Positions 37,110 through 40,171 of a stretch of DNA of 64,000 nt are shown here, in pieces. The stretch is from positions 17,635 through 81,634 of the forward strand of contig JBGPTH010000004.1 of the NCBI GenBank assembly GCA_041490525.1. The letters are read 5' to 3'. The first letter of the stretch is position 1, and each line of letters begins with the position of its first letter. The position numbers and the translations under genes are program-made. Under the pieces are notes generated by a model that saw only the letters and a list, made by a program, of their open reading frames with translations, was not told where the DNA came from and did no database searches. The DNA comes from Nitrospiria bacterium. Lineage in GTDB: Bacteria > Nitrospirota > Nitrospiria > Nitrospirales > NS-4.

Positions 37110-37706
37110 TTACTGGGTTCGCAGCCGCTCAAGCTGCGCGCGCAGATGGGCCCACTGGGTGCCGGGCCAGTAGACGTGCCCGCACCCGGCGCATCCTGCA
37201 AACCGGGTGTGCTGCTGAGCGACGAAGAGGGGCACCCGAGGGGCGGCTTCTTCGCGGGGGATTGGGGTGAGGAGCAGATTACACTCAGGGCAACGGCTGG
37301 GCGTCTCGGCGTCGAGATTCAAGCTGAGGTTCAGCTCCGTCCGGAGCTGGCGCAGTTGATCGAAGAGATGGTCGCTTTGGATCAGCGTATGACGGTCCCG
37401 GACGATCTTGCGCTTCGCCAGGTGCCCGTCTCGCGTGAGGAGCCATCGGTGTTCCTCCAACACGCGCTGAACGAGCACGTCATCCGGGATGATTTTCTCG
37501 TAGGCCGTGTCGTATCCCACAATCCGCAGCCAGCGGGCAAGCCTGCCGAGCATGACGTCCGCAAAAAAGGCGCTGGGCGGATTGAGCTGCAGGGAAGGAT
37601 CCCACGCGGGCCGGAGAGGCCCGCGTTCTAATCGACCCGATGGGGTACGAAATGGAAATTCATTTGTTGACCCATGCCCTGATTCTCCGGACTGGTTGGC
37701 TCCCAC
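37110..37706 (-). CDS. Mut7-C (DUF82) RNase-domain protein
   Basis: FFADVMLGRLARWLRIVGYD near the N-terminus and a C-terminal zinc ribbon CPECN...CAGCGHVYWPG. Start uncertain; the track start overlaps the upstream gene by 79 nt. Confidence 0.65.
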   Translation of the reverse strand: MGANQSGESGHGSTNEFPFRTPSGRLERGPLRPAWDPSLQLNPPSAFFADVMLGRLARWLRIVGYDTAYEKIIPDDVLVQRVLEEHRWLLTRDGHLAKRKIVRDRHTLIQSDHLFDQLRQLRTELNLSLNLDAETPSRCPECNLLLTPIPREEAAPRVPLFVAQQHTRFAGCAGCGHVYWPGTQWAHLRAQLERLRTQ

Positions 37707-38053
37707 GTGCCGACCGTGAAATTGCCGCCGACAAGGGCCGCCGCCAGCAGTTTTCCGAACTCGTCAAGGTTCCGGACCGGCTTGCTGTCGATCTCGGCGA
37801 TGACCGCATGGACTTTGATGCCGGCCAAATCCGCCAGGCTCTCCCCGATGATCTCGAACACGGCCACGCCCTCCGCCGATCGGAGATTCAACTCCTTGCG
37901 GATGTCCTCGGTCACCGGGCCCACGATCAACCCGAATTCCTCAGCCATGGCAATGGGATCCTTTGGCTTTTCCGACGGCACGGCTCCGTAAGCCGCCGTT
38001 AAGCTGACCACCACGGCCACCATCAAGCTGCCGATGATTCGAACAACCCTCAT
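37628..38053 (-). CDS. Secreted PDZ-like domain protein
   Basis: Signal peptide MRVVRIIGSLMVAVVVSLTAAYG plus GVAVFEIIGESLADLAGIKVHAVIAEIDSKPVRNLDEF. Confidence 0.5.
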   Translation of the reverse strand: MRVVRIIGSLMVAVVVSLTAAYGAVPSEKPKDPIAMAEEFGLIVGPVTEDIRKELNLRSAEGVAVFEIIGESLADLAGIKVHAVIAEIDSKPVRNLDEFGKLLAAALVGGNFTVGTWEPTSPENQGMGQQMNFHFVPHRVD

Positions 38054-38109
38054 ACGATTCTATCTGCCCCCTTCAATCAAAATCCCAACACATCCAGGAG
38101 CCTCATGTG

Positions 38110-38139
38110 TTTGGGGCTGTCCCTTCGGACAGCCCCAAA
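38110..38139. other. 13-bp perfect stem-loop TTTGGGGCTGTCC-CTTC-GGACAGCCCCAAA
   Basis: Lies 11 nt after the stop of the 48-aa ORF and 57 nt before the PDZ gene start. No clean U-run on either strand. Confidence 0.6.
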
Positions 38140-38149
38140 TCACTCTCTT

Positions 38150-38296
38150 TTAGGCCGCTTTCTTCTGGGGCTTGCCGGTGAAGTTCTGCACGACCGGAAC
38201 GGTCATGGGCTCGAAGGCCTTCAGGCTCGCTCCCAGCATCAACACACCCGCCACCAGTCCCGAGATAGCCAGAAACCCATCAATGACGGAATCCAT
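38150..38296 (-). CDS. 48-aa single-TM mini-protein (hypothetical)
   Basis: Hand translation: MDSVIDGFLAISGLVAGVLMLGASLKAFEPMTVPVVQNFTGKPQKKAA. A GAGGAGG Shine-Dalgarno lies 9 nt upstream of the ATG. Confidence 0.45.
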   Translation of the reverse strand: MDSVIDGFLAISGLVAGVLMLGASLKAFEPMTVPVVQNFTGKPQKKAA

Positions 38297-38652
38297 CTTC
38301 TATTCACCTCCTCATTCGCGTTGGGTAAGTAGTCTATAGAATTGAGCTGCTTGATAAGATAGCAGCCCCACATTAGGAGCAGATTAACAGCACATTAGAA
38401 TTGTCTTATTTCCGCGGAACTGAGCCGGAAAATCAGTTGAATTCGAAGAGGGTGGAGGGGGTCGTTCAGAGCTCTTTTGTTTACGGCGGAGATCGCGGAA
38501 AGATTTTAGGTTTCCCGGTCAGCCGGGCCTACACACCATCTCTGCACTTGACCCCCCTTTTGCTCCTACTGTGTCTCTTGTGGCCCCTCAACCCTCTATT
38601 TATAAAGTAGGTCCTGATCTCAGGTAGTCAAGACGCCTCCAGATCCCCTCCC

Positions 38653-38680
38653 TTGACCGAGGCCGCTGAGTGGCTAATAT
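38653..38680 (+). promoter_or_regulatory. Sigma-70-type promoter TTGACC-N16-TAATAT
   Basis: -35 at 38653-38658 and -10 at 38675-38680, in an AT-rich patch. Predicted TSS is about 38688. Confidence 0.4.
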
Positions 38681-38687
38681 ATTAATA

Positions 38688-39015
38688 GGGGGTGAGAGAA
38701 GGCCTGATGCAGGACGGCATCCTGATTTTGACTCGCTCTTGTGCCGAAAGGTGTCGGCCGTTGGTCCTGTTTCTGAGGAACAGGGCGCAAAGTGGGTTTC
38801 GGCCGGATGCCGCAAGGGTTGAGGTTCTGTGCCGGAAGCGGGATCGCTTCCGATGGTGCGTGCCTCGAACTCGATGCCAGTAGGCATGGCCGTAAATGCG
38901 AGCCCGATGAAGCCGAGGCACGGGGTGGCCTGAAAGAGCAGGAGGGTTACCCGGATCGGTTCCGGCTGGTAGACAGGACTGAGGCTCACACAAGAGCGAG
39001 CCGTTTTAATGTTTA
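38688..39015 (+). ncRNA. Candidate structured RNA (unclassified), about 0.3 kb; strand tentative
   Basis: ORF-free and visibly lower in G+C. A 12-bp closing helix (38732-38743 with 38989-39000) encloses at least five hairpins (details in findings). The 3-prime strand is followed by CCGTTTTAATGTTT. Confidence 0.35.
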
Positions 39016-39052
39016 GGCCCTGTTTTCGTCCCCCCTTATGGCGAGCCCCAAG

Positions 39053-39061
39053 TGTTATAAT
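39053..39061 (+). promoter_or_regulatory. Extended -10 element TGTTATAAT
   Basis: 12 nt before ATG 39074 with no Shine-Dalgarno between. Confidence 0.35.
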
Positions 39062-39073
39062 GATTTTTAAGCT

Positions 39074-40171
39074 ATGACGACCTCCAAGCTCAATACCGTC
39101 GTGCCCACGAAGTACTGGCACGCACTCGAAGACGGGCGCGTCCAGTGCGATCTCTGCCCCCGGTTCTGCAAGCTCCAGGAGGGGCAGCGGGGGATGTGTT
39201 TCGTGCGCGCCTGTGAAAACGGCCAGGTCGTTCTGACCACCTACGGGCGGTCCAGCGGCTTCTGCGTCGACCCGATCGAGAAAAAGCCGCTGAACCATTT
39301 TTTGCCGGGCACCCCGGTGCTGTCCTTCGGGACGGCCGGCTGCAACCTGGCGTGCAAGTTTTGCCAGAACTGGGACATCAGCAAATCCCGCGAGATTGAT
39401 ACGCTCGCCGATGAAGCCTCCCCCGAAGTGATCGCACGGGCGGCCCGCGATCTGGGGTGCCGGAGCGTGGCGTTTATTTACAATGATCCGGTCATCTTCC
39501 ACGAGTACGCGATCGACGTCGCCCAGGCCTGCCGTGAAGTCGGGGTGAAATCGGTGGCCGTGACGGCCGGGTACGTGTGCGAGGCACCGCGCGAGGAGTT
39601 TTACCGGTACATGGACGCCGCCAATGTGGACCTCAAGGGGTTCACCGAGCGATTTTACAAAGAGATGACCGCCAGCCACCTGCAAAATGTGCTGGATACG
39701 CTGGTATACCTCAAGCATCACACGAAGGTCTGGTTCGAGGTGACCACCCTGCTGATTCCCGGGGAAAACGACTCGGAACGGGAACTGGAGGAATTGACCC
39801 AGTGGATGGCGGAGCACCTCGGGCCGGATGTACCCCTGCACTTCACCGCCTTCCACCCTGACTGGAAAATGCTGGACAAGCCTCCGACCCCACCCGCCAC
39901 CCTCACCCTGGCGCGCCGCATCGCGATGAACAACGGGCTCCGCTACGTCTATACCGGCAACGTCCATGACGAGGAAGGGGGCAGCACCTACTGCCCGCAC
40001 TGCGGGAAGAAGCTCATCGGCCGCGACTGGTACGTGTTGACCGAGTGGAATCTGACAGCGGACGGCGGGTGCACGTTCTGCGGCGCGGAGTGCCCGGGGG
40101 TGTTCGAGGCCTCGCCCGGAAGCTGGGGGGCAAAGCGCCTGCCGGTCCGCCTCAGAGACTTCGCAAACTAA
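39074..40171 (+). CDS. AmmeMemoRadiSam-type radical SAM enzyme (AmrS-like), second copy
   Basis: CDLCPRFC...GMCFVR, DPIEKKPLNHFLPG and CNLACKFCQNW motifs. Paralog of 20280-21377. Confidence 0.8.
   Translation: MTTSKLNTVVPTKYWHALEDGRVQCDLCPRFCKLQEGQRGMCFVRACENGQVVLTTYGRSSGFCVDPIEKKPLNHFLPGTPVLSFGTAGCNLACKFCQNWDISKSREIDTLADEASPEVIARAARDLGCRSVAFIYNDPVIFHEYAIDVAQACREVGVKSVAVTAGYVCEAPREEFYRYMDAANVDLKGFTERFYKEMTASHLQNVLDTLVYLKHHTKVWFEVTTLLIPGENDSERELEELTQWMAEHLGPDVPLHFTAFHPDWKMLDKPPTPPATLTLARRIAMNNGLRYVYTGNVHDEEGGSTYCPHCGKKLIGRDWYVLTEWNLTADGGCTFCGAECPGVFEASPGSWGAKRLPVRLRDFAN

Follow-up and report, generated by a model that had tools for sequence, protein, structure and literature searches.

Location of the proposed RNA gene and its homologues

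The stretch of DNA analysed here (the window) comprises 64,000 nucleotides of a Nitrospiria bacterium (contig JBGPTH010000004.1, positions 17,635 to 81,634). Its segment 38297-39073, directly upstream of an AmrS-like radical SAM gene, lacks any credible open reading frame (ORF), as the first-pass annotation of the window had claimed. The plus strand of this segment, at 38687-39007, probably carries an independent RNA gene; its product of ~320 nt would be non-coding, highly structured and a member of a family not yet described. Beside it, on the minus strand, lies a probable, divergent 6S RNA gene (Table 1). The AmrS protein has 82% amino-acid identity to Nitrospirae genome bins, which places the window in Nitrospirota.

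Table 1. Features of the proposed RNA gene and its probable 6S neighbour, in window coordinates
Feature	Position	Strand	Basis or remark
Probable 6S RNA (ssrS)	38441..38600	-	partial RF00013 match, fold, conserved position
-35 box TTGACC	38653..38658	+	part of the sole sigma-70-like site in 38000-39300 (promoter scan)
-10 box TAATAT	38675..38680	+	promoter scan; position kept
Predicted transcript of the structured RNA	38687..39007	+	5' end from promoter, 3' end from U-tract and end of homology
Leader hairpin GAUGC/GCAUC (tentative)	38706..38721	+	one pair, 38708/38719, is A-U instead of U-A in L137 (alignment reading)
P1, 12-bp closing helix	38732..38743 with 38989..39000	+	perfect complement
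P2	38750-60 with 38800-11	+	domain 38750..38811, encloses P2a
P2a	38761-73 with 38778-90	+	hairpin inside P2
P3 and P3'	38816-30 with 38973-87	+	13 pairs
Ha, CGGAAGCG-GGAU-CGCUUCCG	38833..38852	+	8-bp hairpin
P5	38859-67 with 38914-22	+	9-bp helix plus 3-bp extension; domain 38859..38922
P5a	38874-87	+	enclosed by P5
P5b	38888-38904	+	enclosed by P5
P6	38923..38952	+	9 bp, 12-nt loop with invariant CAGGAGGG
Hb (GGA/UCC)	38953..38963	+	short hairpin
Variable single-stranded linker	38964..38972	+	most variable stretch within the RNA
U-tract, likely intrinsic terminator	39004..39007	+	directly 3' of P1

Seven copies of the RNA from two lineages could be compared, namely that of the window (with the same sequence in L081 and L082), a partial one in L083, and those of L084, L134, L135, L136 and L137. 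The five close relatives are 94-96% identical; L137 is divergent, with 72% identity over the core. The protein with a PDZ domain encoded at 37628-38053 was a useful anchor for finding them: exact and near-exact look-ups led to the near-identical contigs L081-L083, to L084 (88% protein identity) and to L095, while a PDZ relative of 75% identity (P0003) led to L137, which holds both the divergent RNA copy (177 bits with nhmmer) and a 6S candidate. The three further close copies L134-L136 were reached through a spurious ORF annotated across the RNA of L084.

R1, a calibrated covariance model built for the core with 274 positions and 91 pairs, was run over the window and ~1 Mb of fetched loci, where the RNA is single-copy; it recovered the known copies and no others. 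A match of 19 bits in L022 was rejected as a bare hairpin from which all inner domains are absent. Neither the RNA nor the 6S gene was detected by nhmmer and covariance model at 80 genome loci with AmrS relatives, and among 39 metagenome loci examined for PDZ synteny only L095 is related, which ends before the RNA. The RNA was likewise not found in the contexts of the paralogues P0032, P0102 and P0107, a gene-free gap of 890 nt in L142 had no Rfam match, plasmid and phage BLAST returned no match to the RNA, and scans of viral contigs with conserved motifs gave chance 17-mers only. The RNA is so far known from one small clade of Nitrospirota, and a description of such an RNA was not found in the literature.

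Boundaries of the transcript

The promoter TTGACC-N16-TAATAT (38653-80), already proposed in the first-pass annotation, is the only sigma-70-like match in the 1.3 kb scanned, and it would set the transcription start at ~38687-38688. Its -35 box reads TTGACC in the window, L134 and L137 and TTGAAC in L084, L135 and L136, and is embedded in a conserved island (CCTTGAMCG) of the spacer between the 6S and RNA genes, which as a whole is only ~60% identical to L137; CCTTGACCG of this spacer is likewise retained in L137. The sequence of the -10 box varies among the copies (TAATCT, TAACTT, TATCTA).

At the other end, every copy has a U-tract after P1 (U4 in the window, U6 in L084, L134 and L136, U7 in L137), despite three unrelated downstream flanks. 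Homology among the relatives stops at 39007-39010, where these flanks start. The predicted RNA is therefore delimited at ~38687 and ~39007 by its promoter, its U-tract and the end of homology. A small local hairpin before the U-tract (GGCUC 38983-87 with GAGCC 38998-39002) can also be read from the sequence.

A lower G+C content had been ascribed to the whole intergenic region. The dip (0.47-0.53) is confined to 38300-38700, over the 6S gene and the promoters, whereas the RNA core has 0.60-0.63 like its surroundings.

Secondary structure and compensatory changes

The fold model contains 91 pairs and was obtained by weighing alternatives pair by pair after RNAalifold on the close copies and a separate folding of L137, two approaches that agree on the architecture. 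It is branched, with five branch points. Pair statistics were compiled over six distinct sequences and compared with controls in which partners were slid by 1-3 columns and with 500 shuffles. Standard pairs fill 98% of the pair cells versus 36-46% in the slid controls, a comparison that flatters the model, and both sides have changed in 10 pairs versus 2.1±1.3 in shuffles (none of the 500 reaches 10) and 0-5 in slid controls. These values are unchanged between the MAFFT alignment and the model-guided alignment. In L137, where 28% of core positions differ, 82 of the 91 pairs still form even with a register shift in lower P2 left uncorrected.

Changes on both sides are located in P2, P2a, Ha, P5 (two), P5a and P6. 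Within the first of these domains, L137 exchanges G·U for C-G at 38753/38808 and G-C for A-U at 38764/38786; the register shift mentioned above and one G·G mismatch in L136 affect P2 as well. Ha turns from G-C to A-U at 38834/38851 in L137 and shows three one-sided changes to G·U. The P5 domain combines exchanges in L137 (38861/38920 U-A to C-G, 38866/38915 C-G to G-C, 38874/38887 A-U to G-C) with the motif GCCAGUAGGCAYGGCCGUAAAURCGAGCC, which is conserved in all copies save its two Y/R positions. Two pairs of P6 each occur in three states, 38926/38949 as U-A, U·G and C-G (U-A to C-G in L137) and 38927/38948 as G·U, A-U and G-C.

The remaining helices vary less. Ten pairs of P1 are invariant and the other two become U·G in L137, a change allowed on the plus strand only. 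P3/P3' has no pair changed on both sides; six of its 13 pairs vary on one side with pairing kept, and 38826/38977 occurs as U·G, U-A and C-G. The stem of Hb is invariant and hence neither supported nor contradicted. The leader hairpin has a possible competitor (38710-14 with 38720-24). Long-range pairings rival to Ha (P4 of RNAalifold, 38839-46/38957-64, and I3, 38831-40/38957-66) were rejected, having acquired mismatches and no compensation, as was a leader repeat (I5, 38715-22 with 38805-12) that is unconserved in L137.

This model retains most of what the first-pass annotation had drawn by eye. Its perfect 12-bp closing helix and the listed arms are all in place (38859-67/38914-22; 38833-40/38845-52; CCTGTT/AACAGG, 38766-84; ATGCC/GGCAT, 38874-87; CCGGA/TCCGG, 38951-65), and the closing helix and five of the six inner hairpins belong to the supported fold. 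The sixth, CCGA/TCGG at 38744-57, does not; its bases join P2. The CCGGA/TCCGG hairpin in its 5-bp version overlaps P6, and only its GGA/UCC part is kept, as Hb. A perfect 12-bp repeat alone is within chance on the scale of 64 kb (we estimate ~1 expected within 300 nt), and we accept the RNA as real because of the comparative evidence, not because of the repeat alone.

Two purine runs resembling Shine-Dalgarno sequences occur in the RNA, CAGGAGGG (38941-38946, in the loop and 3' arm of P6, invariant including L137) and UAGGRGGUG at the 5' end (38688-38695). A start codon follows neither.

Strand

The strand of the RNA is plus, because each copy contains 12-16 G·U pairs which on the minus strand become C·A mismatches and leave only 67-79 of the 91 pairs. 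Substitutions in close relatives repeatedly yield G·U (38837 A to G, 38845 C to U, 38921 C to U), and one-sided substitutions in general mostly produce either G·U or, once more, a Watson-Crick pair. The orientation of the U-tract and of the conserved -35 box also fits the plus strand. The plus-strand assignment, tentatively made before from a single G·U pair, is thereby supported. Both strands of the window fold more stably than shuffles, the plus strand at -149.2 kcal/mol (z -3.5) and the minus strand at -123.6 kcal/mol (z -5.1); the plus fold is lower by 25 kcal/mol. For L137 the z scores are -3.2 (plus) and -3.9 (minus).

Coding potential

ORFs of 50-103 aa can be drawn through 38297-39073, none of them credible. 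Four sense and antisense ORFs had no Pfam match, no relatives beyond their own near-identical cluster appeared in an index of 5.8 billion proteins, and an exhaustive HMMER search of the sense-frame ORF P0121 against 1.84 billion representative proteins returned only itself. A query made of concatenated six-frame translations of the RNA returned nothing, its validity being doubtful and its result uninformative.

In the alignment, an indel of 1 nt in the P2a loop shifts the frame of the sole sizeable sense ORF between the window and L084, L134 and L136, L135 carries a further 1-nt insertion and L137 several indels of 1-2 nt, and the ATG at 38707 is AAG in L137. Because of these loop indels of 1-2 nt we exclude a coding gene. 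The public gene calls over the RNA are spurious (L084 3998-4336, L134 692-1036, L135 1117-1392, L136 168-512, L137 2636-2908 and 3132-3731). They comprise 'hypothetical proteins' of 91-114 aa and a 90-aa ORF in L137, where the PDZ protein is moreover called with 199 instead of ~141 aa, its ORF extending back across the 6S gene.

Relation to known RNA families

The whole window has no match at gathering score among the 4227 models of Rfam 15. When 38250-39120 was scanned at E<=10, the RNA itself matched isrA alone, with 14.7 bits (gathering score 51; E 1.7), which is noise, and noise is likewise all that the RNA of L137 returned. ARAGORN found no transfer RNA or transfer-messenger RNA (tmRNA) in the window, and the covariance models of RNase P, tmRNA and the large signal recognition particle (SRP) RNA gave no match even at E<=10; reading of the sequence shows neither the RNase P P4 element GGAAAGUCC nor the tRNA-like end of tmRNA. 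The earlier failure to match RNase P, tmRNA, SRP or riboswitches is borne out by the Rfam scan. The same had been said of 6S, and it holds for the plus-strand RNA, which RF00013 does not match, but the probable 6S gene 90 nt away on the minus strand had been missed.

GGA enrichment of the CsrA-sponge kind, K-turn motifs like those of box C/D RNAs, and RNase P or SRP signatures were sought by eye and found absent or unconserved. A retron RNA (msr-msd) was rejected as well: a reverse transcriptase is called in none of the loci, the neighbours being AmrS, HtrA, PDZ, Mut7-C, Usp and nitroreductase. The RNA belongs to no described family; as an orphan structured bacterial non-coding RNA, it has precedents.

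The probable, divergent 6S gene

RF00013 matches 38485-38556 on the minus strand only partially (34.1 bits, E 4e-5, gathering score 46.4; model positions 59-134 of 187), and the equivalent match in L137 reaches 38.6 bits, also below the gathering score. The fold of the candidate consists of a closing stem of 13 bp (GAGGGUUGAGGGG/CCCCUCCACCCUC), an irregular helix inside it and a GC hairpin at the end, and so has the shape of a 6S RNA (length ~160-190 nt, open centre flanked by a long closing stem and a terminal hairpin); its fold energy is no better than that of shuffles (z -0.4). We regard it as a probable, divergent 6S RNA gene. It adjoins the structured RNA in every lineage except L135 and is transcribed divergently from it, with start points ~90 nt apart. 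Complementarity between the two RNAs was no better than in shuffles, as far as a crude method can tell.

In L135, 161 bp covering most of the 6S gene and its promoter are missing (at 1047-1048, corresponding to window 38476-38637), while the RNA and its adjacency to AmrS are kept. This loss is either a real deletion or an assembly artefact.

Genomic context

What is conserved around the RNA is the 6S candidate and, beyond it, the PDZ gene (L135 excepted for 6S). The downstream side differs: in the window and L135 the co-oriented AmrS gene follows 63 nt away, in L084 a convergent Usp gene together with an EndoV gene (a block of ~2 kb), and in L137 a convergent nitroreductase gene. L134 and L136 share the start of the L084 flank on contigs too short to show genes, and the P0008 locus, known by gene order alone (nitroreductase, a 56-aa ORF, a gap of 865 nt, PDZ gene), resembles L137. 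Because the downstream neighbour differs between lineages, the RNA does not serve the radical SAM gene as a leader. Its position upstream of that gene, stated in the first-pass annotation, is true of the window but a lineage accident, AmrS adjacency being specific to the window's lineage.

The 3' end of the RNA coincides with a synteny breakpoint (window 39007-39073, L084 ~4036, L137 ~2655), at which three unrelated blocks start within bases of the U-tract.

The AmrS-like gene (39074-40171, plus strand) has the extended -10 box TGTTATAAT noted earlier at 39053-61. Its ATG at 39074 lies ~6 nt past the start expected from this box and it has no Shine-Dalgarno sequence; judged by these signals, its mRNA may be nearly leaderless. 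A partner gene of the AMMECR1/MEMO type is not beside it, and a convergent HtrA-type protease gene follows. On the other side of the 6S gene, a gene of 48 codons (38150-38296, minus strand) specifies a small, hydrophobic peptide with a single helix (MDSVIDGFLAISGLVAGVLMLGASLKAF...) and no Pfam match; it is 85-100% conserved in close relatives and absent from L137. Between it and the PDZ gene stands a G+C-rich hairpin of 14 bp (38109-38140; GTTTGGGGCTGTCC-CTTC-GGACAGCCCCAAAT); in every close relative the covariance model also matched it, as a hairpin only.

Discussion

The comparative data argue for a structured plus-strand RNA of ~0.3 kb that has a promoter to itself and ends in a terminator-like signal, as the first-pass annotation had suggested: changes on both sides of helices, G·U pairs, and a conserved -35 box and U-tract point in the same direction, and Rfam gave no match.

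We also have to consider other explanations. A cis-acting 5' leader of the AmrS-like gene, a riboswitch or attenuator in which P1 beside the U-tract decides on termination, would suit the arrangement in the window and in L135, where the RNA ends a short distance upstream of AmrS on the same strand. The 3' arm of P1 overlaps the possible GGCUC/GAGCC terminator hairpin and U-tract, an arrangement typical of expression platforms, that hairpin would compete with P1 and P3, and AmrS lacks a Shine-Dalgarno sequence. Yet the RNA is still fully conserved in L084 and L137 where the next gene is convergent, homology stops just past the U-tract, AmrS owns its TGTTATAAT box, the element is absent at the 80 AmrS loci of other genomes, and no riboswitch family fits; we therefore consider such a leader very improbable. 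That the minus strand is the functional one, as an antisense RNA or as the long, structured 5' leader in a 6S precursor from a distal promoter, is improbable too. E. coli ssrS has a distal promoter of this kind, the 6S gene lies directly downstream on that strand, the z score of the minus fold is the better one in both the window and L137, and Watson-Crick compensation is equal on both strands. The C·A mismatches speak against it, however, as do new substitutions that repeatedly make G·U and not A·C, the plus orientation of both TTGACC box and U-tract, and the region past 39010, which, with three unrelated flanks, offers no conserved sequence for a minus promoter.

We likewise attach little probability to a non-functional origin, whether as a decaying remnant (pseudogene) or as a miniature transposable element bounded by terminal inverted repeats of 12 bp, conserved through recent ancestry only. 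The inverted repeat is indeed perfect, the RNA sits at a synteny breakpoint and in a narrow clade only, and close relatives conserve it no better than coding genes. But neutral decay would not leave 82 of 91 pairs and ~10 both-side changes in L137 at 72% identity, the RNA is single-copy in the window and the related loci, no target-site duplication or flanking direct repeat is seen on reading the sequence, neither P0121 nor the four ORFs compared with Pfam show protein similarity, and plasmid, phage and viral collections hold no match. The least credible alternative, to which we give next to no weight, is a small protein encoded by the ORF 38692-38883 or by the 112-114-aa 'hypothetical proteins' of public assemblies. 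Four assemblies carry ORFs that gene callers placed here, and a sequence like AGGAGG precedes ATG 38707 in close relatives; against this, owing to the 1-nt loop indel, two thirds of the ORF are in one frame in the window and in a different one in L084, L134 and L136, the ATG is lost in L137, the ORF has no relative but itself among the representative proteins, and Pfam gives no match.

Several points nevertheless weigh against an independent RNA gene as we propose it. The transcript is a prediction from sequence alone. The covariation statistics are weak, with effectively 2-3 independent lineages: all both-side changes come from L137 alone, except 38927/38948 (L135), P1 and Hb show no compensatory change, and the comparison with slid controls is inflated in that the model was built from the same sequences. 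Among close relatives, the identity of the RNA (94-97%) shows no striking excess constraint over that of neighbouring coding genes (86-99%). The -10 box is poorly conserved, and the terminator is unusual, consisting of a long-range helix or merely of a 5-bp local hairpin. The RNA of L135, which stands without 6S, argues against obligate coupling of the two genes unless the deletion is an assembly artefact, and none of the results indicates a particular function or partner.

Comparison with known RNAs helps to characterise the element. The raiA motif RNA, OLE, ROOL and GOLLD are, like the new RNA, stand-alone orphan RNAs of a few hundred nt with many helices and multi-way junctions, likewise supported by comparative structure and lineage-limited; the new RNA differs in having no sequence or structure match to these in Rfam 15 and in being restricted to one small clade. 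None of these families is known to be paired with a 6S gene. 6S RNA itself is likewise a non-coding gene of the abundant type with promoter and terminator, of similar or somewhat smaller size, that adjoins the new RNA across a common promoter region, but it is a rod with a central bubble mimicking an open promoter, whereas the new RNA is a branched two-domain fold. Riboswitches and structured 5' leaders resemble it by a P1-type helix that encloses a multi-helix junction and whose 3' arm abuts a U-tract; they differ from it in that the new RNA has no conserved downstream gene, is larger than nearly all known aptamers and matches no riboswitch family. RNase P RNA, tmRNA and large SRP RNA share its size class (270-400 nt), a long-range closing helix and a branched fold.

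We propose that the RNA would be transcribed from the sigma-70-type promoter and terminated at the U-tract as P1 closes. Two domains would form inside P1, the P2/P2a arm and the P3/P3' stalk, the latter carrying a multi-helix junction of Ha, the three-way junction P5-P5a-P5b, P6 and Hb. The RNA may act in trans as a folded molecule, most likely binding protein or serving as the scaffold of a ribonucleoprotein (RNP). Pairing between its purine-rich leader and C/U-rich tracts past the U-tract, as in a processing stalk, was no better than in shuffles for six copies and all three flank types. The ~90-nt control region would be common to the RNA and the 6S gene, and because this regulatory DNA appears to be shared, both probably belong to the same physiological programme; the simplest conjecture is that they are expressed together under stress or when growth is arrested.

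Bacterial RNAs that are both large and structured are rare, and most of the small number characterised have shown unusual biochemistry. It is possible, although we think it unlikely, that the present RNA is the founding example of a large structured class coupled to 6S via back-to-back promoters, acting with or against 6S on RNA polymerase or growth arrest, or else a fast-evolving new RNP or ribozyme of which a wider family has been missed. Its rate of evolution may be judged from L137, where the RNA has 72% identity while the neighbouring protein still has 75%.

Nitrospirota are environmentally important and their RNA biology is almost unknown. For the candidate, a well-defined gene is predicted: a promoter, a terminator and a strand are assigned to it, and compensatory changes support its fold of 91 pairs. 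Public annotation is corrected as well: gene calling across the RNA and 6S genes has produced several artefactual hypothetical proteins and a PDZ protein that is too long. The head-to-head pairing with 6S provides a testable lead, towards co-regulation or towards a functional link to the control of RNA polymerase.

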